Shown one piece after another: positions 983-18,297 of a DNA stretch of 19,992 nt. Numbering within the stretch: position 1 is the first letter of the stretch; every line of letters begins with the position of its first letter. A program made the translations under genes and the position numbers. This stretch comes from Promethearchaeota archaeon. Its GTDB lineage: Archaea; Asgardarchaeota; Hermodarchaeia; Hermodarchaeales; Hermodarchaeaceae. The notes under the pieces are model-generated. The model was given only the letters and a program-made list of their open reading frames with translations. It was not told the DNA's origin and did no database searches. The stretch is from positions 6,682 through 26,673 of the forward strand of contig JBHLMG010000028.1 in the NCBI GenBank assembly GCA_048938385.1, read 5' to 3'.

Positions 983-2677
983 TTATGGTGTAACAACCTC
1001 GATTTTGAGTTTGGGCTTTCTGAAAACTTCAGCTTGTTCTTCGAGGATATTTCGTGCGATGTTTAAGGCTGCTTCATCGTCATAGACGCCTTGAGCGTTT
1101 TTCAGCGCATCTTGGAGCATCTGACGCTGCACTTTGAGCTTTAGATCCCCAATCGTTAATGCCCCAATCCCATAGGTGTCAGGAAGTAACTCACGAAGAT
1201 CATCCATTGGCGTTAGTGATTCAATACCACTTGGAGATACCGCATTCACATCTAGCAAGATTTTTGTCCCTAAAACAGATTGCAGCTGTTCGAGGGATAC
1301 TAATTGAACGCCAGGAGCCCCAACGGCGAAAATCAAAGTAGCGTCATTGATAAGCTCATGAATTGCCTTTGGTGAAGTTGATTGAGCCCCTTCCACCTTG
1401 TTACTTTCAATGGATGCGCGTTTTGCTACTTCTTGGGCGCGTTCAATTTTCCGCGAAGTTAAAACCGTAATGGCTCCACTCTTGGAGAGTAAGTGAGCTA
1501 GACTTTCGCCAACGGGTCCAGTTCCTGCAAGAATTAAAGCCGTGTTGCTTTTGAGCGTCCCTTGACGAAGTTGATGCAGAGCTGCTTCGGCTTTAGCAAG
1601 CATGGCTGCAGAAGTGGAAAAGGCTCCGTGTGGGTCAACAATGACGGATGTTTCGAAAGGTTTCACCATTGCCTTTTGAATTCTGTCCGCCATCTGGCGA
1701 GCAACAGAAACCTGACGGCCTCCAACAAAGAAGCAGAGATGCTTTACTCCTTTGGTCCCTCTTGAAAAGATGGCGTCTTGGACAAGGTCTTGAATTTGAT
1801 CAAGTGACACCCCAGTGTATGGGACTACGACATCAAATCCTGCGTCATACGCTACACAGATATCAAACGGGCTAGCGTGGTCATCCGCTTCTAGGAAAAA
1901 AAGGATGTTACTTAGTTTTGTTTTGGGGCGTTTGATTACGGGTATATAAGAAACTGAGGAGACTCCTGTGAGTTGGGTCATTCCTTTTAGTTCTTCCTTA
2001 GGTAATTCGGAAAGAATCTGTTTAAAGATTATAGGAACTACTTCTACTTCTAAGGACTGTAAGAGTTCCATTAAGCCTTGGTAATGTTGAGGGCTGCTTA
2101 GGTGAAAGGCTGTTATTCGTTTCTTTTTGAGAAGATCTGCTTTGTTTAAAATCCCCATGGCAATCCAGCTTTCCCGGATTCCAAATTGTACTTGTCTAAT
2201 TTCTTCTTCAAGTTCATCGTGCAAATATTGTCCATAGGCTACAAGTCGATCTATGTTATCTTGTACTTTTGGAGTTATTTTTTCACCCGACAGGACCTTT
2301 AAGCCTTCTAAGATTTCATTTCGCTTTTCCAATTTCAGCTTTATACTACGTGAGAGAAAACTGTGAGCAACCTCATCCATATCAACCGCGTATAGCGGGA
2401 TCTTTAATTTCGCAAATACGCTGGCTAATGGGTTGTCTTCATGGAATTCCTTCGTACTACGCAAACCTAACTCATCAGTCACAAATTCGGGCTGTTCTGA
2501 TTCTGCAATCTCTTTTACCATTTCACAATACGCCATGGAAGGTCGTTTAATTGCGGTCATCTTCGATGCAGATGCAGAAGAGAGAGCAGGGATTCGCCAA
2601 GGTTCATCATAGGCCTTTCTAATTAAAAAAACTCGCAGCTTTTTTCCTTTCAAAGGAGCAAGTTCTAGTGTTTTCAA
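983..2677 (-). CDS. mtdB: NAD(P)-dependent methylene-H4MPT dehydrogenase (MtdB/MtdA family) with a ~250-aa N-terminal extra domain
   Basis: C-terminal half has HASPFDICVAYDAGFD, QDAIFSRG, FFVGG, DPHGAFSTSAA, Rossmann LAGTGPVG, DVNAVSPSGI and GIGALTIGDLK. Start placed at TTG 2677, which has AGGTGA 4 nt upstream (564 aa); the longest ORF begins at 2791. Confidence 0.85.
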   Translation of the reverse strand: MKTLELAPLKGKKLRVFLIRKAYDEPWRIPALSSASASKMTAIKRPSMAYCEMVKEIAESEQPEFVTDELGLRSTKEFHEDNPLASVFAKLKIPLYAVDMDEVAHSFLSRSIKLKLEKRNEILEGLKVLSGEKITPKVQDNIDRLVAYGQYLHDELEEEIRQVQFGIRESWIAMGILNKADLLKKKRITAFHLSSPQHYQGLMELLQSLEVEVVPIIFKQILSELPKEELKGMTQLTGVSSVSYIPVIKRPKTKLSNILFFLEADDHASPFDICVAYDAGFDVVVPYTGVSLDQIQDLVQDAIFSRGTKGVKHLCFFVGGRQVSVARQMADRIQKAMVKPFETSVIVDPHGAFSTSAAMLAKAEAALHQLRQGTLKSNTALILAGTGPVGESLAHLLSKSGAITVLTSRKIERAQEVAKRASIESNKVEGAQSTSPKAIHELINDATLIFAVGAPGVQLVSLEQLQSVLGTKILLDVNAVSPSGIESLTPMDDLRELLPDTYGIGALTIGDLKLKVQRQMLQDALKNAQGVYDDEAALNIARNILEEQAEVFRKPKLKIEVVTP

Positions 2678-2854
2678 ATAATCACCTGCCCTTTGGGGGC
2701 AGTAAAGACTCCTCGCCATTGAAGAAAAAGTCGATGAAAATTTATTTTGAAAGAAATCATGACAAAAATTGTCGTCAACTTTTTTGCTCATTACAAACAG
2801 GCTAAGCTAGCGCAATTTTTGTTGATATGGCTTCGATATAATAGATATTCCAGC

Positions 2855-4189
2855 CTAACCTTTCGATTCACGAAATCTAATATCTGTATGAGTAGCACAA
2901 GAAACACAGGGATCAAAACATCGAATGGCCATCATTGCTCGTTCGAGGATTTTTTCATTCGACCAACCAAGATCTAAACAAGCCGTCATGACATTTTTTA
3001 CAACTAAAGCTATCGCACGGGCATTAAGCTCGGTTGGTACTCGAATATCAAGACTCTCAATTCTTTCTTTATCGTCTATTTTCACTTGGTATAGGAGTAT
3101 TCCTCGTGGAGCTTCAACCGCGCTCGCTCCTACAGTGGGTCGTGGTTCCGAAGCGATTGAGACTTCTTCATGTACCGACCATTCTGTTTCTAAAAGCCTG
3201 ATCGCATTGGTTATCGCAAATTCAATTTCATCGATTCGGAGAAGGCCTGAACGAAAAAGGTTGGGTGTTCCTATTTGTGATGCTTTGCTCTTTTTGGGTT
3301 TAGTTTTGAGATCTGCTAATCGGGCATAGGGTCCTGCGAGGAGGTTTTTTGACTCATCGCTTGATTTGACATAAACTATCTTGGTTGGAGCTTCAAACAA
3401 GTCCTGTTCGACTAGATGCTCAGAGAAATCGTGACAGGGAATTATTTGGGGGGCTCCATCCTCTGAAATGAATTTGACTTGATTAACACCAGAGAATCGA
3501 TTTGCTTCTGTTTCAAAACAGCTGATATAAAGAGGAAGAGGGAGAGCATAGTTTTGGATTTCACCTTCGATTTCATTCAGTAACCAGCTGTAGTACTCTT
3601 TGGTCCATTTTACCCCGGAGAGCGTTGCATGGAGTTGTCGAATAAGGTCTTCTTGTTGGGTGATAGTGATATTTTGTACGATTCCGCCTGGAATCAGGTT
3701 AAAAGCCAAATTTGTATTACCCGCTGTAGCTGTAATTAGCGCCTCTGCGCAATTGTATAATTTCGTAGCAATTGGGAGAACACGGGGTTGCGTGCGATCT
3801 ATACCAATGATATCTTGACGAGAGATTTGGTTAGTTAGGTGCATTAGATCAACTAAGGTGGAGAAAAAAACGCTGTAGGTATGCGATCGGATGATTTCCC
3901 CTAACAGGGCCAGTTCTCGGATTAACTCTGCAATTGGAGGAATTGATACATCAGATGTTGATTCTATTGCCTTTATTGCTCCGATTCTATGTGAAACTGG
4001 GCAAATCCCACAGATTCGAGGTACAATTTTTGGTAAGTCCTTTACTTTTTGTCCAGTTAAGACCCCCGTGAAGTCCCGTGCAGTGGACATGTTATAAATT
4101 ACATTTACAATACGGTCCTTCTTCCGTGTAACGATAAGCTCACTTTCGCCTTCAATGCGGGTCATGGGCAAAGATAATCGAATTTTCAA
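2855..4189 (-). CDS. mvhA: Group-3 (MvhA-like) [NiFe]-hydrogenase large subunit, divergent
   Basis: L1 RICGICPVSH, L2 FDPCVSCATH plus a 10-aa C-terminal extension, TRIEG and EAPRG. The TTG start overlaps the upstream TGA (TTGA, 4186-4189). Confidence 0.88.
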   Translation of the reverse strand: MKIRLSLPMTRIEGESELIVTRKKDRIVNVIYNMSTARDFTGVLTGQKVKDLPKIVPRICGICPVSHRIGAIKAIESTSDVSIPPIAELIRELALLGEIIRSHTYSVFFSTLVDLMHLTNQISRQDIIGIDRTQPRVLPIATKLYNCAEALITATAGNTNLAFNLIPGGIVQNITITQQEDLIRQLHATLSGVKWTKEYYSWLLNEIEGEIQNYALPLPLYISCFETEANRFSGVNQVKFISEDGAPQIIPCHDFSEHLVEQDLFEAPTKIVYVKSSDESKNLLAGPYARLADLKTKPKKSKASQIGTPNLFRSGLLRIDEIEFAITNAIRLLETEWSVHEEVSIASEPRPTVGASAVEAPRGILLYQVKIDDKERIESLDIRVPTELNARAIALVVKNVMTACLDLGWSNEKILERAMMAIRCFDPCVSCATHTDIRFRESKG

Positions 4190-4920
4190 TGTTTGACCTT
4201 CAGCTCCGGTTTTTGATATCTAAAGGCAAGTGCGGCATATTCCCGAATCGTATCGCTGACTTTTAATACGGAGAAGAGATTGGCGATGGCAGAGGGGAGA
4301 TTTCGGTCAATCGCGCCCATGCAACCATCACAAGGCGTGCCTCCATTAATACAATGGGCCTCACATCCAGCACGGGTTACCGGACCTAGACAAAGGACGC
4401 CTTCGCGTAAGAAACAGCTTGTTGGTGGATGCGTCGCATGTAATGATGTTATCTCGATGTCATATGTTTGATCTTGTGCAAAGGGGCATTCTCCACACAC
4501 ATTTTTCTCAGGTATTTCGATTTCAGAACCGTCAATTGCGCTCATCAGGAGATTTCCAATAAGCCTCCGTGGCGGGGGACAGCCAGGTAATGACGAATGC
4601 GGATCAACGAACTTATTGACAGGCTCAACCTGGATGTTGGGCGAGTGACTCATTATTCCCCCCAGAACGGCGCAACTTCCAAGAGCGATAATTTTGGTTC
4701 CTTCTGACCATAGTTTCCGAAGAAGTTCAGCATCCTCATTCCGAGTAACTCCACCTTCCACGAATACCACATCTAAATCTTTATCATCTTGGATATCGAA
4801 AATTAATCGAAAAATCTGAATATCTACAGATTTAAGGAGTTCAGGGAACAGGGCACAACCGAGTATAGCAAACATGCAGCCGCTACAAGAGTTCAGCTGA
4901 AGGAAACCCATCTTGGGCAT
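4186..4920 (-). CDS. mvhG: [NiFe]-hydrogenase small subunit (MvhG/HydD-like)
   Basis: SCSGC, VEGGV, ALGSCAVLGG, LPGCPP, VCGECP, CFLREGVLCLGPVTRAGC…C…PCDGCMG. ATG overlaps the upstream TAA by 1 nt at 4920. Confidence 0.9.
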   Translation of the reverse strand: MPKMGFLQLNSCSGCMFAILGCALFPELLKSVDIQIFRLIFDIQDDKDLDVVFVEGGVTRNEDAELLRKLWSEGTKIIALGSCAVLGGIMSHSPNIQVEPVNKFVDPHSSLPGCPPPRRLIGNLLMSAIDGSEIEIPEKNVCGECPFAQDQTYDIEITSLHATHPPTSCFLREGVLCLGPVTRAGCEAHCINGGTPCDGCMGAIDRNLPSAIANLFSVLKVSDTIREYAALAFRYQKPELKVKH

Positions 4921-7448
4921 TAACTTAACAGCTCCTTTAATTCGGTGGCAAATTGATTGACCTGGGAAGCAAAAATGTGGCCCTCAACTGCTGATACATT
5001 CAGTACGCGAACGCGTTTTTGTAATTCTTCTCCATAGAACTGTGAAAGAACGCTAATTCGTTGACTCGCCTTCTGGATACCAAAAAGATAACGGCATGCA
5101 GTTTCATGACAGCCAACAATCATGACGCCGTCAAATCCATAGTTTAGAGCATCTATCACAAAATTTGCATCGATAGAACCCGTACAAGGCAATCTAATTA
5201 TCATTGCACTAGTCTCATAGTCCAATCGACGAATACCAGCATTATCTGCTGCGGGGTACCCGCAAGAGTCGCAGGTAAGAATAAGTATTCGTGGTATGAT
5301 TGCACCCATAGACAAGGCAATCATCGCGGCTTGGATTTCCTCCTGAATTGGAGGTGAAGACAGGGCTCCTGTGGGACAGATTGCGACACAATCTCCACAG
5401 CCTTCACATTTTAGAGTATCAATACGGAGCGTATCTGCTGTGATAGAGATGGCTTTGAAAGGACAAACCTCTAAACAAAGATTACACAGCCCACATTTTT
5501 CTTGATTTATTTGAATAGGTATATCTCCTGCTGGAAGGTTATCCTTTTCTAATAATAGGAGAACTTCTAAAGCGACATTTCGCGAGTCTGTTACTAGTTC
5601 GGAATAAGATTTAGGACCCGTTAGTGAGCCACAGGCCCAAATACCTGAGGATAGGCTTTGGGGATCAAGAAAACCGCGTCTATCCAAGGAAAAATTTGTC
5701 ATTGTACGAAGGGCTAATTGTTGATCTCCCGGGGCCATACCCATGTTTAGAACAATGAGATCCGCTGGAAAGCGATTCGCTCCCGTTTCAATAAACCGCT
5801 TTCGTCCCCGATGTATAACTTTTATCTCTTCACAAAAGTGAATATGGGGATCTTCCGGGATGAAGATGTTTCGATCTGGCGGAATTCGAGATTTCTCGTA
5901 AATAATATTGATAGAAGTATTTGGAGCTTTATGCTTAACAACATCTATGAATTTTAGCGCGACATTACAGCAATAGTGTGAACACGCATTGATAGAATTT
6001 TGGCATTGGAGGATAACTATAGATTTAGCGAGTTTGCCATTTATTTGTCGGAGTATGCTGCCTCCTGTTGGTCCATCAGGAGCAAGCATTCGTTCAAATT
6101 CAGATGAGGTGATAATGTCCATTGATGGGTTATATTGAATTGGATCTCGGTGTTGAATGGTCTTGGGATCACAAACTTCTGCCCCCGTCGCTAGAACTAT
6201 AGCTCCAACCGAGAACTTCTTAGTTTCAGGTCGTTGATCAAGGTCAATGGCATGAGACGGACAAGCCTTTTCACATTTCCTGCAATTTCGACAATAATCT
6301 ATGTTCTCTTCATCAATAACTGGTTTGTTGGGATATGCAGCAGGACATGGTATATGGATAAGTTTACGCTGCGAAAAGTTAAACTCAAATTCATCTGGAC
6401 GAGACTCCGGACAGATAGTAGTACAGGACCCACACATGATACACTTTGTTAAATCGACATATCTAGGTTGTTGGGTAGCGGTAATTTCGTAATTACCTAT
6501 CGTACCTGAAATATCAGTGAGTTCAGTGTTAGTAAGAATTCGTATCTTGCCGGAAAGGATGACAGATGATACATCCTCAGCGATCATGCAAGGGCCACAA
6601 TCTATGGCGCCGTAGATTCGCTCCCATCGACGGGCGATTCCACCTAGGCAAGACTGTCTTTCTAGCAGAACAATCGAGTGATTAGATTGTGCTAGAACCT
6701 TTGCAGCTTCCAATCCAGCTAGTCCACCACCAATGATGGCGACACTTTTCCGAATTGGTAGGGTTCGTTTTGGGATTGACACCCGATGTCGGAGCATTGC
6801 CACGCTTGCCCTGATTAGTAGTAGAGCTTTTTCCGTAGCTTGTTCGGGCTTATTTTTATGAACCCAGGCACACTGTTCGCGGATATTTGTAAATTCGACT
6901 GGTAATTCTAATTGCATTCGAATTGTAGTAAACATTTGGCTATGAAGACGAGGCGAGCAGGCAGCAATTACCAGATTGTTCAAAAAGTGCCGCTCACACC
7001 ATTCTTTGAGCTTCGCAACATTTTCTAATAAACATAAATGCTGAAACACCATCGTGCGTTCAACAAAAGGGAGGGCGTTGACTTTCTCAACAAGTTCACC
7101 GACATTAATGGTCTGACGGATTTCTTCGCCACAAGTGCAGATAATTACTCCAATACGGAAGATTGCTCCACGTGAATCAGCTTCGCTTATATCAATTGAT
7201 TCTCCCGCCATTAGTTGGTCCTTCGCAATCATCAAGCGGATTGCACTTCCACCCGCAGCTGAAAGTTGATAAAGTCCATTTCGTTTCTCAATAAATCCTT
7301 CAAGTTTTTTAAGATGATAATTAAACAGACCAGTTTTTTTAAGCCCTAATCGTTTCATCAAATCATTATAGGTGATTAGCCGTTCGGCATCTAATATCCG
7401 AAGAATCTTTTCGCGGAGAGGGTGAGCCAATGCCGCATAGATATTCAT
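4920..7448 (-). CDS. hdrA: Fusion: N-terminal winged-HTH (ArsR-like) + heterodisulfide reductase subunit A-like FAD/Fe-S protein + C-terminal MvhD-like [2Fe-2S] domain
   Basis: aa 1-~75 ALAHPLREKILRIL…TYNDLMKRLG…GLFNYHLKKL (wHTH). HdrA motifs IGVIICTCG, AACSPRLH, NIREQCAWVH, IIGGGLAG, DCGPC, four ferredoxin-type CxxCxxCxxxCP motifs, EFERML and CSHYCC. MvhD motifs TCDSCGYPAAD, RLPCTGSID and DGVMIVGCHETACRY. Confidence 0.92.
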   Translation of the reverse strand: MNIYAALAHPLREKILRILDAERLITYNDLMKRLGLKKTGLFNYHLKKLEGFIEKRNGLYQLSAAGGSAIRLMIAKDQLMAGESIDISEADSRGAIFRIGVIICTCGEEIRQTINVGELVEKVNALPFVERTMVFQHLCLLENVAKLKEWCERHFLNNLVIAACSPRLHSQMFTTIRMQLELPVEFTNIREQCAWVHKNKPEQATEKALLLIRASVAMLRHRVSIPKRTLPIRKSVAIIGGGLAGLEAAKVLAQSNHSIVLLERQSCLGGIARRWERIYGAIDCGPCMIAEDVSSVILSGKIRILTNTELTDISGTIGNYEITATQQPRYVDLTKCIMCGSCTTICPESRPDEFEFNFSQRKLIHIPCPAAYPNKPVIDEENIDYCRNCRKCEKACPSHAIDLDQRPETKKFSVGAIVLATGAEVCDPKTIQHRDPIQYNPSMDIITSSEFERMLAPDGPTGGSILRQINGKLAKSIVILQCQNSINACSHYCCNVALKFIDVVKHKAPNTSINIIYEKSRIPPDRNIFIPEDPHIHFCEEIKVIHRGRKRFIETGANRFPADLIVLNMGMAPGDQQLALRTMTNFSLDRRGFLDPQSLSSGIWACGSLTGPKSYSELVTDSRNVALEVLLLLEKDNLPAGDIPIQINQEKCGLCNLCLEVCPFKAISITADTLRIDTLKCEGCGDCVAICPTGALSSPPIQEEIQAAMIALSMGAIIPRILILTCDSCGYPAADNAGIRRLDYETSAMIIRLPCTGSIDANFVIDALNYGFDGVMIVGCHETACRYLFGIQKASQRISVLSQFYGEELQKRVRVLNVSAVEGHIFASQVNQFATELKELLS

Positions 7449-7579
7449 ACTGTGATCCTTCTTGATTTTCTGCGGAAAAACATCTATGATAACTTCAATT
7501 GTCTTGGAAAGGAGCTAAGACAAAAATGCTTGCCCTGTTTCAAAAAGGAATGAAAAAGGGCTTTGACAAGTTCCTATAA

Positions 7580-7822
7580 TTAGTGAGTCAGCAACTCTTT
7601 CGTACGCTCAGAAGTAAGGGGCGGAGCGCGATAGCGAGTCTGGCGACAGCTACGACAGACATAACGAGCAATAACATTAAGAACCCCGCACCATTGACAT
7701 TTCCAAAAATCCACTGTTACCAGTGTTATGTCGCTTTTGCGTCTTATATAACGACAATGCTGGCATAGGCGTAGATGTATAAAATTAGATACTCCACATA
7801 TAGGGCAAGTCCAATATTTCAA
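7580..7822 (-). CDS. Small protein with two tandem RanBP2/NZF-type zinc fingers
   Basis: WTCPICGVSNFIHLRLCQHC and WKCQWCGVLNVIARYVCRSC both fit W-x-C-x2-C-x3-N-x6-C-x2-C. TTG start with GGGGTGA 6 nt upstream. Confidence 0.8.
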   Translation of the reverse strand: MKYWTCPICGVSNFIHLRLCQHCRYIRRKSDITLVTVDFWKCQWCGVLNVIARYVCRSCRQTRYRAPPLTSERTKELLTH

Positions 7823-8040
7823 CCCATATCACCCCACAATGATCCTTCTTACGGCCTATTCATAGAGCCTCCAAACTTTTTTCTCGGGATGTGTTGCGTT
7901 ATTTCTCTTTAGAGATTCGTTGTTTTGATGGAACCTAATTTCACATCCTCAGCATACATTAGAAGGGAATTATGAAACAAAAAGACTCTGAAAAAAATCA
8001 TTTCAAATGTTTGACAAACAAATTTATCTTTAGATGACCG

Positions 8041-8259: not shown

Positions 8260-9564
8260 TTAAACATCAGTTATCGGGTCATCATCAGTGATGTTTTTTG
8301 CCTCGTCATCTTTGGGCGTGGCGATTAAGTGGGGTAGTTGTTCATCTAAGAAGGCGCTAACATTGTCTAAACAGGTTTGTTCCAAGTTGAGGCAATGAAT
8401 GTCCACTAGGGCGTTTCTTAGAATACGAAACGGGGTTTCTCCTATCTCTCCTGCTAGAAGGGCGTTGACATTGATATCTAAAAGCGCTTTTGCTGAATTT
8501 GTGCCATATTGTTCTTTTTGTGACGGCCCTGGGTTTTTCATGGTTCTCCAATGAAAAAGTTCACTATTCTTAACATCCATAATCAGGAAGTAAGGCGATG
8601 CCTCAAAGGATGAGTTAGGTAGAGATTCGGGAGTTGAACCGGCCTTATCTACAGGGATTGCTATCCGAAATGATTCAAGCCTAGTAGGTTCAAGATGAAC
8701 AAGGAATGTCAGCATTTCAGGGTAGGTAGCAGCGACTCTCATTTCAATTTCATCCGAAACCCGATGAGCTTGTGATAAGGTTAAATCCGCAGAAACCTCT
8801 AAATGGGCTTCACCAAAGCAAATGGGTCCTGCCTGACGGATTTTTATGTCATGAACGCCTTGCACACCTCTAACTTGGGAAGCTAATTTCGTAATTTCTT
8901 TCACTTGATCAGGCTTTGTCACCGCATCCATCAAGATCAATAAGGAACTGTACGAAATTTCCAAGCTACTCTTTAAAATAACCAGACCTATGATAAAGCC
9001 AACTACGGCCTCAGCCCACCAAATACCTACTCCTTCAAAAAGTAAGCCGACAAGAACAACTAATGAAGCGTACAAATCCATTCTGTAATCCTGACCAATA
9101 CTGTAAACCGCTTCACTCCCCGTTTCTCGTCCAATTTTTTTCAAATACCAAGACTGTACAATAATTATGGGAATCGAAACCAAAGCCACTATTAGGGCTG
9201 CATCATAAAACGCAATTTCTATGGGTAATAGAATGTGCATTATTGCCTGCCAGAGAACTAGTAGTCCTGTTCCAAAGATGAAGATTGCAACAACTAATGC
9301 CGCCATTGTCTCAGCCTTGAAGTACCCATAGGGATACTTCTGACTAGGTGGGCGTTGAGCTAGCCACAACCCGAGGTACACAGTTGATCCAGCGATTAAA
9401 TCGGTAAAGGAATCGATAGCTTGAGCAAAAAGCCCTACACTACCTGAAAAGTATCCTACAATACCCTTTGAGAGGGCAAGGAAAATCACAACAACCATTG
9501 CCCATTTGATGACTCGACGACCCCGATCCAATTGGTGATCAATAACCCCTATCGGTTTACTCAT
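8260..9564 (-). CDS. Cation diffusion facilitator (FieF-like) with C-terminal NifB/NifX-type domain
   Basis: SGSVGLFAQAIDSFTD, YPYGYFKAE, DYRMD, dimerisation domain VHDIKIRQAG…AHRVSDEIE…VHLEP, then RIAIPV…PYFLI…KNP…G…GEIG (NifX-like). Confidence 0.9.
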   Translation of the reverse strand: MSKPIGVIDHQLDRGRRVIKWAMVVVIFLALSKGIVGYFSGSVGLFAQAIDSFTDLIAGSTVYLGLWLAQRPPSQKYPYGYFKAETMAALVVAIFIFGTGLLVLWQAIMHILLPIEIAFYDAALIVALVSIPIIIVQSWYLKKIGRETGSEAVYSIGQDYRMDLYASLVVLVGLLFEGVGIWWAEAVVGFIIGLVILKSSLEISYSSLLILMDAVTKPDQVKEITKLASQVRGVQGVHDIKIRQAGPICFGEAHLEVSADLTLSQAHRVSDEIEMRVAATYPEMLTFLVHLEPTRLESFRIAIPVDKAGSTPESLPNSSFEASPYFLIMDVKNSELFHWRTMKNPGPSQKEQYGTNSAKALLDINVNALLAGEIGETPFRILRNALVDIHCLNLEQTCLDNVSAFLDEQLPHLIATPKDDEAKNITDDDPITDV

Positions 9565-15737: not shown

Positions 15738-16940
15738 TTAGAGGCCTTCATGCAGGTATTTGAGTAACTGCGTTTTATTCATCTTAGCGATTCCTAGATC
15801 CTTGAGGGTGACGCCAGTTTGGAAGAAGTCGATTTTCGTCATGACGGAGGCGAGTGTAATGAATGATTCGATAATTGGTGTCTGGACACCGAACTTTTTG
15901 CCTAGTTCGTAGAAGATGTGACATCCCACGGGTACATCTTCGGTGATGTACCTATTGTGAATGGTATAGGGTCCTGTGGCTTTGAGGAGATGGAATTGTT
16001 CAGTAAAGGGTACGACCACATCGGGGCCCATAAATTCTGCGCCCAGTATGTTTGTTCGTGAAAAGAAGTCCTGTTTGTCAAAGGGTTGAATCCCTACTCC
16101 AATGGCTTCTGCGATTTGGCGTTCCTCTTGGTAGAAGGCGTATTGGATTTCTGAGATTGATGGGCAGTAAGCGTGGGAGTATATTGAGAAATCGTATTTG
16201 TCGTGTCCAAAGATTATGCCCCAGTTTTCCATGACGCCTACACCGAGAATGGTGCCTGGGACATGGAGCATGGGATTGACGTTGCTCAGTCCGATATCGA
16301 TGACGGTGTCGCCTTCAACCGGATTGACAACCGAATCTAAGGGGGGAAAATACTGTGCGGATTCCAAAAAGGCGGATTGGTCTGTAGAGGGAAGAGTGGC
16401 ACCCCGTAGTGTGATTGCCCGATACAGAAGATTCAGTTCTGGGAGTTTCACGCCCCCTTCAGTTTTAATGCGAACACCGTAGGGTTGGCTGGACCATTCG
16501 CCGATGATGACCTTTTTGTCACAGCCCAACTCGTGCATCATCTTTCGTAATAACAGAGATCCAAAATTTCCTGTACAGAAGTGAATGATCATGCCATCTT
16601 CTAAATGTGGGATTAGCTTTTCAAAAAATGCTTTGAATCCAATAGCCGGAATACTTACGGAAATAATTCCAGCGCCTTCAACCGCTTCCTTCATATCGGT
16701 GGTAATCGTATCAATTTTAGCGAGACCGTCTCGCTTGAAGCCATATAGGTTTACTTGCGGTCCTGAAAGCCGTAGTTCTCGGGTCTTGATAATTTTTCCT
16801 AATTCCTTGGCAAATTCAGGTAACTCGTATAGCCGAACTTCGCGTTTGGCTAGCGCACAATCGGCGGCTTGACATCGTCCTGTGGTGCCTCCTCCAAGAA
16901 TTGCAATAGGTTTATCTTTCAAGTGTTTCATGTTGGTCAT
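15738..16940 (-). CDS. NAD/NADP octopine/nopaline (opine) dehydrogenase family protein
   Basis: Rossmann IAILGGGTTG, GNFGS, LSNVNPMLHVPG and NRYITEDVPVG…FGVQTP. Confidence 0.9.
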   Translation of the reverse strand: MTNMKHLKDKPIAILGGGTTGRCQAADCALAKREVRLYELPEFAKELGKIIKTRELRLSGPQVNLYGFKRDGLAKIDTITTDMKEAVEGAGIISVSIPAIGFKAFFEKLIPHLEDGMIIHFCTGNFGSLLLRKMMHELGCDKKVIIGEWSSQPYGVRIKTEGGVKLPELNLLYRAITLRGATLPSTDQSAFLESAQYFPPLDSVVNPVEGDTVIDIGLSNVNPMLHVPGTILGVGVMENWGIIFGHDKYDFSIYSHAYCPSISEIQYAFYQEERQIAEAIGVGIQPFDKQDFFSRTNILGAEFMGPDVVVPFTEQFHLLKATGPYTIHNRYITEDVPVGCHIFYELGKKFGVQTPIIESFITLASVMTKIDFFQTGVTLKDLGIAKMNKTQLLKYLHEGL

Positions 16941-17010: not shown

Positions 17011-18297
17011 TCATAATGCGAGGTAATGGACTAGTTGTTTTGTCATGTTGAGTAGGTCATTGATTCGGACCCATTCGTCGGGTTGGTGGGCAGAAATATT
17101 GTCTAATGTTGCTGCTCCAACTCCGATGAATTTGTCTGTGTTTAGTGCGTGAGCGACAAAGCCCATGTCGGTGGAGCCGGAAGCACCGCCATAAACAAAG
17201 TCACTATCTTGGTAGCCATGAACGGCTTTCAACGCGGCTCGCATTTTCTGTGAATATCGGTTTTCTGTGTCAGCTTTAAAGGGATAGTTAGCATGCGTAA
17301 ATGTAATTTCAACATCTATGGCTTTACTGTTGGCTTTTCCTCGTTCAATGGCGGCACGAATCTCTTCGACGATATCTTCATAGTGTTCTTCGGGTATGTA
17401 CCGTCGATTAATGAGTAATTCACATTCTGAGGGGACAATATTGGCTTTGTTGCCTCCGCGTATAATGGCAAGGCTAAACATCGGTGTCATCTGATCTGAC
17501 GGGGCTCCCAGACTTCGTAGCGCCGGAATGAGCGGAACCTTGGATTCTCGTTTTTCTACTTCTTTTTTAAGTTTGAGCAATTCGACGATGAGAGGCATCA
17601 TCTCTTCTACTGCATTTATCCCAAGAAAGTTCATCCCAGAGTGGCAACTTCGTCCTTTAGTGCGAATGGCAATATCGACCATGCCCGCTATACCCGCCAT
17701 GATAATTGGGAGCTGGGTGCCAAGTTCGGTATTAAGAATGTGTCCTTTCACATAACCTTCTTTGGCTAAGTGATAGATGCCTGGATAAATCCCAATTTCT
17801 TCATCAGTGCAGAGGGTACAGATGATATTGAAGTGGGGTGTAAGGTTGAGTTCATTCATGACCTCTAGGGCCACGAGCATGCCAGCGATACCTGATTTCA
17901 TATCACAGGCGCCTCGACCATACAGCTTGCCATTTTCAACAATACCGGCAAAGGGATCCTTTGTCCAAGGCTCTTCAATGGGTACGACATCCATGTGGGC
18001 ATAGATGGTGACCGCTTCTTTTTTTCCATGTTCGCGAGTGGCAACAAGATTGATACGGGGGCCTTCAAGCGGATAGGGAATTGCTTTGATATGTTCATCC
18101 GGAACAATTACCCGTTCAGTAGTAAAGCCGAGGTTCTCGAATTGCGGCTCCAAGAAGTCGACTAGGTCTGCATAATTGTTACCTGGGGGGACAACCGTGG
18201 GAATCTTAATTAATTCTTGTAAGAGGTTGATAATCCGATCACGTTTTTGTTCAACCGCCTTAAACACATGTTCCACAGAGGGCTGTTTAGCACTCAT
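17011..18297 (-). CDS. M20 family metallo-amidohydrolase (ArgE/DapE-like)
   Basis: AHMDVVP, LYGRGACDMKSG, TDEE, GRSCHSG, GGNKANIVP, GSTDM and AHQPDE. Confidence 0.92.
   Translation of the reverse strand: MSAKQPSVEHVFKAVEQKRDRIINLLQELIKIPTVVPPGNNYADLVDFLEPQFENLGFTTERVIVPDEHIKAIPYPLEGPRINLVATREHGKKEAVTIYAHMDVVPIEEPWTKDPFAGIVENGKLYGRGACDMKSGIAGMLVALEVMNELNLTPHFNIICTLCTDEEIGIYPGIYHLAKEGYVKGHILNTELGTQLPIIMAGIAGMVDIAIRTKGRSCHSGMNFLGINAVEEMMPLIVELLKLKKEVEKRESKVPLIPALRSLGAPSDQMTPMFSLAIIRGGNKANIVPSECELLINRRYIPEEHYEDIVEEIRAAIERGKANSKAIDVEITFTHANYPFKADTENRYSQKMRAALKAVHGYQDSDFVYGGASGSTDMGFVAHALNTDKFIGVGAATLDNISAHQPDEWVRINDLLNMTKQLVHYLAL

Follow-up and report, generated by a model that had tools for sequence, protein, structure and literature searches.

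A 19,992-nucleotide stretch of DNA from a Hermodarchaeales archaeon (Promethearchaeota archaeon, contig JBHLMG010000028.1), termed the window below, carries a co-oriented minus-strand cassette of about 7 kb. The cassette comprises a zinc-ribbon (zinc-finger) gene, an 842-amino-acid (aa) fusion open reading frame (ORF), mvhG, mvhA, and the gene of a protein with an Mpt_N domain. The fusion ORF joins an N-terminal winged helix-turn-helix (wHTH) domain to HdrA-MvhD, and its product is probably a self-regulating trigger enzyme, in which the wHTH would bind palindromes within the cassette that encodes it. As in other trigger enzymes, a catalytic and a DNA-binding domain are found in one polypeptide, and a computationally predicted operator lies at its own promoter.

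In the proposed mechanism, the enzyme body would be the HdrA-MvhD flavin/iron-sulfur (Fe-S) subunit of a group-3c-type [NiFe] hydrogenase module, and a dimer of the linker-tethered N-terminal wHTH would bind the sequence (T)GACAA-N6-TTGTC(A). Operators would be located at three cassette promoters, namely those of the fusion-mvhG-mvhA operon (two operators), the Mpt_N gene, and the zinc-finger gene, and the enzyme would control its own synthesis along with that of a linked dehydrogenase of the C1 pathway. By analogy with PutA and RbkR, DNA binding may respond to the state of the enzyme, either through H2-derived reduction of its flavin adenine dinucleotide (FAD) and Fe-S clusters or through assembly of the complex. 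DNA binding and autoregulation are well supported by sequence comparison, and H2 or redox sensing is plausible by analogy. The fold, the conservation of the recognition helix, the conservation, spacing and promoter location of the palindrome, and its co-occurrence with the fusion were all computed; we infer that the palindrome-binding protein is the wHTH.

The winged helix and its enzyme body

The fusion gene and the parts of its product are as follows.

4920..7448, minus strand: 842-aa fusion ORF, with no internal stop
7209..7448, minus strand: ArsR-type wHTH, residues 1–80 (Pfam DUF7347, AlphaFold 2, Foldseek, and PDB profile match)
7158..7208, minus strand: flexible linker, residues 81–97, from the wHTH to the N-terminal Fe-S domain of HdrA (AlphaFold 2 confidence, variable sequence)
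5289..7157, minus strand: HdrA core, residues 98–720 (NCBIfam, Foldseek, invariant Cys ligands)
4923..5288, minus strand: MvhD/FlpD [2Fe-2S] adaptor, residues 721–842 (Pfam FlpD, NCBIfam VhuD match)

Residues 3–71 match the archaeal wHTH family DUF7347 in Pfam with 50.2 bits against a cut-off of 27.6 (profile positions 4–75 of 77), and the relatives match this family as well. The Pfam models HTH_20 (23.1 bits against a cut-off of 27) and HTH_24 stay below threshold for the fusion protein; one relative, P0037, passes HTH_20 with 30.8 bits. An AlphaFold 2 (AF2) model of residues 1–96, based on an alignment of 21 relatives, has a predicted local distance difference test (pLDDT) score of 85.8. It displays wHTH topology, with helices at residues 10–22 and 27–34, a recognition helix at 39–48 with the sequence KTGLFNYHLKK, a β-hairpin wing at 53–62, and a long helix at 64–80. 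Foldseek comparison with the PDB matches this domain to ArsR/SmtB repressors (3f6o, 1u2w, 1y0u, 7p6f, 4omy, and 3pqj) at a probability of 1.00, the matches including CadC (1u2w), AF0168 (1y0u), SrnR, NolR (4omy, with DNA), and BigR. In addition, a profile search of PDB sequences finds 1y0u with an E value of 2e-6. An earlier sequence-only reading of this DNA had described an ArsR-like wHTH in frame with HdrA, with no stop between them, and had placed it at 7224–7448. These methods agree with that description, and the coordinates correspond to residues 1–75.

Among 21–22 relatives, the wHTH residues L7, H9, P10, R12, I15, L19, T39, G40, N43, H45, L46, K55, Y60, L62, and G66 are invariant, and these make up the hydrophobic core, the recognition helix, and the wing. 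The recognition-helix motif TG..N(Y/F)HL is unchanged from Hermod- to Bathyarchaeia despite overall identity as low as 37%. Moreover, the wHTH diverges no faster than the enzyme, since identity to Lokiarchaeial, Helarchaeotal, and Bathyarchaeial relatives is 37–42% for the domain and overall alike.

The linker comprises about 17 residues, is in frame, and varies in sequence among aligned relatives, in reasonable accord with the length of about 20 residues read earlier from the sequence. In the full-length AF2 model (pLDDT 83.6) the wHTH stays folded, and residues 81–97 have pLDDT values of 59–65, falling below 50 at residues 88–93. This low confidence indicates a flexible tether.

The HdrA core contains an N-terminal Cys-cluster domain, a thioredoxin-reductase-like FAD domain, and inserted and C-terminal ferredoxin domains; in Pfam, HdrA-type FAD and Fer4 domains span residues ~98–700. 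Foldseek pairs the body with 5odc_A (E 5.6e-54, template modelling score 0.76, normalised to the target), and the HdrA Cys ligands and the GxGxxG motif are invariant among aligned relatives. NCBIfam matches HdrA and HdrA2 from residue 98 onwards, below the equivalog cut-offs (383 bits against 1300, and 541 against 1100). By sequence the body is therefore an HdrA-family protein whose role as a subunit of the coenzyme M–coenzyme B heterodisulfide (CoM-S-S-CoB) reductase is only putative. Pfam FlpD covers residues 721–840 with 110.1 bits against a cut-off of 22.3.

The fusion is widespread. A word-indexed search returned 24 protein clusters of 840–885 aa that share the DUF7347, HdrA, and FlpD architecture; they stem from NCBI, JGI, ENA, and Logan assemblies, with identity down to 41% over residues 1–230. 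An exhaustive HMMER search added further representatives, one of them from Bathyarchaeia. By six-frame search, in which an uninterrupted ORF of ~850 aa had to align from query residue 1–3 to ~220, the fusion occurs in ~118 of 400 Asgard genomes and in at least 8 families. Its recurrence in independent genomes thus bears out the domain architecture proposed from the sequence.

Within the genus the cassette is accessory: six genomes have both the fusion and Mpt_N, seven have neither, and two have Mpt_N on truncated contigs, while all four genomes of a sister genus lack both. The fusion and Mpt_N have been gained or lost jointly within the genus. A selenocysteine codon was considered at the end of a 147-aa Sigynarchaeota protein (P0156), where the stop is a TAG near the contig end; the idea was dropped once another assembly of the locus (G281) was found to have an uninterrupted 841-aa ORF.

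Two more DUF7347 proteins are encoded in the genome (C36:28337-28543 and C17:10648-10857); their C-terminal halves are hydrophobic, and they are probably membrane-anchored. In a Helarchaeotal locus (L010 16246-16526), a 499-aa FrhB/FdhB-like protein with an N-terminal wHTH (weak HTH_5 match) is encoded 7 kb downstream of the fusion gene. Fusions of wHTH domains to enzymes may be a recurring theme in Asgard archaea.

Candidate operators in the cassette promoters

The candidate operator is a 16-bp palindrome, (T)GACAA-N6-TTGTC(A), often found as ATGACAA-N6-TTGTCAT. This unit was derived from the upstream regions of 40 further genomes. Four such sites lie upstream of cassette genes in the window (no strand is assigned; sequences are given on the gene strand).

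7519..7534: candidate operator site 1, fusion promoter, GGCAA-GCATTT-TTGTC, -71 to -86 from the ATG
7488..7503: candidate operator site 2, fusion promoter, GACAA-TTGAAG-TTATC, -40 to -55 from the ATG
2761..2776: candidate operator upstream of Mpt_N, GACGA-CAATTT-TTGTC, about -84 to -99 from the TTG at 2677
8013..8028: operator-like site upstream of the zinc-finger gene, GATAA-ATTTGT-TTGTC, about -191 to -206 from the TTG at 7822

Sites 1 and 2, with one mismatch each and 31 bp apart, are the sole pair of sites with at most one mismatch within 60 bp of each other in the 2.48-Mb genome. Site 1 is kept in four other loci (L014-L017) with a variable spacer, and site 2 is found in three of them (L014, L015, and L016) at -56 to -61. 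The Mpt_N promoter is the most regular: the site occurs at -96 to -102 in 11 of 11 cassette loci (families f1 and f31, window included) and is exact in L017, L019-L022, L012, and L024. Extra exact sites are found in this promoter at -149 in L015 and, as a second copy, at -151 in L017. Across Mpt_N promoters the N6 spacer is free, while no variation occurs in the half-sites or in a TTCAT(A/C)G.C.TT block downstream. At the zinc-finger promoter, GATAA-N6-TTGTC occupies the homologous position in L014 and L016; the site in the window is followed by a promoter block that resembles that of Mpt_N.

The Mpt_N gene probably starts at the TTG at 2677, which is codon 39 of the 602-aa ORF call. This call appears too long because homologues start at the codon-39 TTG and because the operator falls within the supposed first 38 codons.

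The palindrome is also found in more distant cassettes. Exact copies lie 100 nt upstream of an operon of a 213-aa gene and Mpt_N in Lokiarchaeia (L008) and in a divergent intergenic region of Sigynarchaeota (L005). Family f14 (L038, L039) has two of them in front of the fusion gene, and in Bathyarchaeia (L006) exact copies flank a hydrogenase cluster on both sides. The spacing itself is distinctive. A count over 175 kb of non-redundant cassette loci gives 13 exact and 44 near matches (at most one mismatch) for GACAA-N6-TTGTC, compared to 0–2 exact and 1–23 near matches for every other spacer from 0 to 20. Reversed control words give 0–2 exact and 2–15 near matches at every spacer.

It has also been observed that the palindrome accompanies the fusion. 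It is present upstream of the Mpt_N operon, at the same position, in five of five fusion-positive Lokiarchaeia, and absent upstream of Mpt_N in 12 of 13 fusion-negative genomes (families f3, f13, f19, f20, and f30). The fusion-negative set includes four g53 genomes that are 92–97% complete, and one contig truncated at the position of the fusion gene was left out; the single fusion-negative genome with a palindrome is 79% complete. Because the related genomes are not independent, this co-occurrence is supportive and does not amount to a formal test.

The half-sites are 11 bp apart from centre to centre and could be read in adjacent major grooves by a compact ArsR-type dimer. The sequence-only reading had postulated a palindromic operator between 7449 and 7580, with the HdrA dimer positioning two HTH domains on it. 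Candidate palindromes do lie in this interval; the HdrA scaffold, however, is not required, since at this spacing a compact ArsR-like wHTH dimer suffices. HdrA is dimeric in solved complexes (5odc), and therefore each HdrA dimer would supply one wHTH pair.

A different operator, TTGTC-N15-GACAA, had been considered at first. This sequence occurs a single time in the window (0.01 expected) and nowhere else in the 2.48-Mb genome, and four congeneric loci each have one copy at the corresponding position. It consists of the inner half-sites of two adjacent sites of the GACAA-N6-TTGTC type and was replaced by them, and the 20-bp half-site spacing that demanded an HdrA-dimer scaffold was dropped along with it.

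With its end 40 nt from the ATG, site 2 must overlap the core promoter, which suggests autorepression of the fusion promoter. The candidate operators of Mpt_N and the zinc-finger gene lie immediately upstream of an A/T-rich TATA-like element, beside the region of the B recognition element (BRE) and TATA box. An occupied operator could here block transcription factor B (TFB) at the BRE and repress, or could recruit and activate.

The window holds five of the 65 sites with at most one mismatch in the genome, compared to 0.5 expected. The fifth, GACTA-N6-TTGTC at 17029–17044, lies ~90 nt upstream of an octopine-dehydrogenase-like gene (15738–16940) and may be due to chance.

Strength of the reading and its alternatives

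Several observations weigh against a DNA-binding, self-regulating role for the wHTH. Some of its Foldseek matches are to the non-DNA-binding dimerisation domains of O-methyltransferases. No inducer site was found in a reading of the translation: residues 1–96 hold no Cys, and there is no α5 metal motif. Some fusion promoters have no recognisable site within 260 nt (L022-L024 and several Lokiarchaeial loci), and the fusion gene in these loci may be transcribed from an upstream promoter. Genome-wide, the palindrome is not enriched (65 sites compared to ~83 expected, 8 of them intergenic), and a search of the 2.48-Mb genome for a regulon revealed no site that stands out beyond the cassette. The regulon would therefore be tiny, and the argument depends on the position and conservation of the sites. 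With its similar recognition helix (SGKLNFHLQKL), the probably membrane-anchored DUF7347 paralogue C36 could occupy the same site. Lastly, the wHTH of BamF, which belongs to an HdrA/MvhD-type complex, is purely a protein interface (bioRxiv 10.64898/2026.04.10.717634).

The cysteine-free wHTH lacks the metal or thiol site of ArsR-type sensors, and any signal must therefore arise in the enzyme body. It is conceivable, if rather doubtful, that the HdrA-MvhD-MvhAG complex is a one-component H2 sensor, a suggestion based on analogy. Electrons from H2 would then reduce the flavin and Fe-S clusters of HdrA and alter how the wHTH pair engages GACAA-N6-TTGTC. H2 would directly set the transcription of the hydrogenase and of the tetrahydromethanopterin (H4MPT)-pathway dehydrogenase, with no kinase, second messenger, or separate regulator in between.

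The wHTH might instead be a plain autoregulator, which binds the palindrome without conveying H2 or redox information and has become joined to the leading gene of the operon under its control. It would serve as dosage or assembly feedback, in which the free subunit binds DNA and the assembled subunit does the same or is sequestered. This is an unlikely explanation, although sensing residues, Cys included, are absent from the wHTH and the flexible linker is little conserved. Furthermore, the domain survives apart from HdrA, as a 93-aa gene or as a wHTH-Mpt_N fusion (L001, L025), and can therefore be fused to any gene in first position. In these deletion derivatives of one clade (L001 6001-7976, L025 4501-6475, L026 2456-2726), the HdrA body and the hydrogenase genes are gone. 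The wHTH and linker (90–93 aa) directly precede Mpt_N, with a TGA stop that overlaps the TTG start. In L025 one extra A in an A-run creates an in-frame wHTH-Mpt_N fusion of 658 aa, and in L026 there is a frameshift near the C-terminus of the wHTH. An exact or one-mismatch operator is absent from these loci except for one one-mismatch site in L026. The derivatives thus seem to be decaying remnants, because they are nearly operator-free and L026 is frameshifted, and the stand-alone forms resemble recent deletions. The fusion to HdrA, in contrast, has long been kept, at 37–45% identity from the ~118 Asgard genomes to Bathyarchaeia, even though a simple stop or start could easily abolish it.

It is still less probable that the wHTH is a protein-protein module, used for dimerisation or for docking Mpt_N or another partner, and that the palindrome is read by another factor, for example a DUF7347 paralogue that stands alone. 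The similar recognition helix of C36 and the Foldseek matches to methyltransferase dimerisation domains are in keeping with this idea, as is BamF, whose wHTH acts in cryo-electron microscopy as a subunit interface in an HdrA/MvhD-type bifurcating complex. The wHTH is also genomically linked to Mpt_N, with a direct fusion in L025. However, the invariant residues belong to the recognition helix and wing (T39, G40, N43, H45, K55, and Y60) and form no distinct surface patch, the palindrome tracks the presence of the fusion and not the mere presence of Mpt_N, and the wHTH persists in Bathyarchaeial and Helarchaeotal cassettes that have no neighbouring Mpt_N gene. Complex prediction for the wHTH and the Mpt_N protein gave scores of 0.00 and 0.00, which speak neither for nor against contact.

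That the ORF is an artefact of a chimeric contig, or of two genes with an overlooked stop or start between them, can practically be dismissed: Logan unitigs do break inside the wHTH coding region at 7278–7304, but the unitig ends overlap there, at a depth spike that coincides with the conserved recognition-helix codons, and the uninterrupted ~850-aa ORF recurs in many independent assemblies. In one sediment study, the Logan contigs of four runs bridge the wHTH/HdrA junction (7154–7223), two of these runs not being flagged as a possible source. This settles the chimera question raised with the sequence-only reading, and the fusion is confirmed as genuine.

Cassette genes and comparison with known systems

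The other genes of the cassette are as follows.

7580..7822, minus strand: 80-aa protein with two RanBP2-type zinc ribbons (Pfam Zn_ribbon_RanBP, sub-threshold)
4186..4920, minus strand: [NiFe]-hydrogenase small subunit, MvhG/VhuG-like (Pfam Oxidored_q6, NCBIfam VhuG match)
2855..4189, minus strand: [NiFe]-hydrogenase large subunit, MvhA/VhuA-like, group 3c type (Pfam NiFeSe_Hases; best NCBIfam match VhuA)
983..2677 (ORF call to 2791), minus strand: Mpt_N protein, C-terminal half like MtdA/B methylene-H4MPT dehydrogenase (Pfam Mpt_N, 104.6 bits, and Rossmann domain)

The 80-aa zinc-ribbon protein is rich in Arg, and L014-L016 likewise encode a homologue upstream of the fusion gene. The small-subunit gene overlaps the stop of the fusion gene and is found 3′ of it in every locus. 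In the translation of the large subunit the motifs RICGICPVSH and DPCVSCATH (RxCGxCxxxH and DPCxxCxxH) are intact, and the protein ends with TDIRFRESKG after the second motif, so that the C-terminal tail is present. The Mpt_N protein (565–602 aa) fuses a conserved N-terminal domain of ~270 aa without a Pfam family to an MtdA/B-like dehydrogenase, and is encoded by the fourth cassette gene in 11 loci, window included. An Atlas search with its N-terminal half found only clusters of Asgard hypothetical proteins and a chance-level TraB/GumN lead (0.78). The cassette contains no hdrBC genes.

Neighbouring genes differ among lineages. In Lokiarchaeial and Sigynarchaeotal loci, a separate gene of 204–213 aa without a Pfam family precedes an Mpt_N gene of 557–558 aa. 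A Lokiarchaeial cassette (L008/L009 11695-12756) has a gene of 351–353 aa for a HATPase_c protein, a histidine-kinase-like ATPase, directly after the large-subunit gene. In the window, positions 8260–9564 (minus strand) encode a cation-diffusion-facilitator transporter (Cation_efflux and ZT_dimer) with a C-terminal Nitro_FeMo-Co domain (32.5 bits), which resembles domains that bind the FeMo cofactor of dinitrogenase.

Models of Asgard syntrophy and of eukaryogenesis give a central place to hydrogen metabolism. To our knowledge, almost nothing is known about its regulation in these archaea. The literature searched contained no description of a wHTH-HdrA fusion and no mention of DUF7347. Papers on Asgard archaea regard these genes as ordinary MvhADG-HdrABC or as a group 3c hydrogenase (PMC8163825, PMC11291895), and a survey of archaeal fusions notes HdrA-HdrA-MvhD fusions with no DNA-binding domain (PMC11237513). 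The present analysis offers a defined domain, a 16-bp candidate operator, and a putative three-promoter regulon, found in ~30% of sampled Asgard genomes and in Bathyarchaeia. Because these elements are defined and conserved, the question is open to simple in vitro assays. If binding to DNA is gated by the redox state, a hydrogenase or electron-bifurcating complex would for the first time be seen to act as a transcription factor itself, and it would sense H2 by a route mechanistically distinct from the sensor-kinase cascade of group 2b. In addition, the module of Mvh and HdrA without HdrBC would be functionally linked to the Mpt_N fusion protein, which gives a hint as to the electron acceptor that the module uses physiologically.

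PutA, BirA, NadR, and archaeal RbkR are fusions of an enzyme with a regulator. PutA of E. coli and Salmonella is a flavoenzyme with an N-terminal DNA-binding domain, and reduction of its FAD switches it away from DNA. Like the fusion protein, PutA combines a redox flavoenzyme and an autoregulatory DNA-binding domain in one chain, with operators in its own promoter region. Unlike it, PutA uses a ribbon-helix-helix domain on a proline dehydrogenase that moves to the membrane, whereas here a wHTH is attached to an Fe-S/FAD HdrA-MvhD enzyme and switching is only putative.

PutA is mentioned, and the DNA binding of RbkR is described as modulated by substrate and product, in PMC5397151. RbkR, a riboflavin kinase and regulator, is likewise an archaeal enzyme with a wHTH-like domain, and its operators, in its own and its pathway promoters, were predicted by comparative genomics (PMC5397151). 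It is, however, a small soluble kinase of vitamin metabolism that has been validated in vitro, while the fusion protein is, by computation, an 842-aa redox subunit within a hydrogenase complex of several subunits.

With the ArsR/SmtB repressors (CadC 1u2w, NolR 4omy, AF0168 1y0u), the wHTH shares its fold, the order of its helices, and the HL..L signature of the recognition helix; the candidate palindromic operator, with half-sites about one helical turn apart, would be a further parallel. It differs from them in lacking a metal or thiol site, in staying below the threshold of the ArsR Pfam models, and in being joined to a 760-aa enzyme.

Group 2b sensory [NiFe] hydrogenases consist of HupUV/HoxBC with the kinase HoxJ/HupT and the regulator HoxA/HupR, and their large subunit has no C-terminal tail. 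If the fusion protein is a sensor, both systems couple a [NiFe] hydrogenase to the control of hydrogenase genes. Group 2b relies on a separate histidine kinase and response regulator, whereas here the hydrogenase is of the group 3c type, the tail is present, and the DNA-binding domain is on the enzyme. The sequence-only reading had called the proposed sensor unlike the known group 2b/2c hydrogenases, and the tail and the absence of any kinase or response regulator from the window set it apart from group 2b; its novelty is narrowed by the precedent of enzyme-regulator fusions.

The MvhAGD-HdrABC complex of methanogens (5odc) has the same HdrA fold and MvhD domain, and MvhG and MvhA are encoded next door here as well. 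No solved HdrA is known to have a DNA-binding domain, however, and in the present cassette MvhD is fused to HdrA, and the Mpt_N gene follows in place of hdrBC. The last parallel is BamF, an extended MvhD-like adaptor of class II benzoyl-CoA reductase, whose wHTH contacts BamI (bioRxiv 10.64898/2026.04.10.717634). Both are cases of a wHTH within an electron-bifurcating machine of the MvhD/HdrA type. In BamF the domain is an internal interface, whereas in the fusion protein it is an N-terminal, tethered, ArsR-type domain with putative cognate palindromes in its own promoters.

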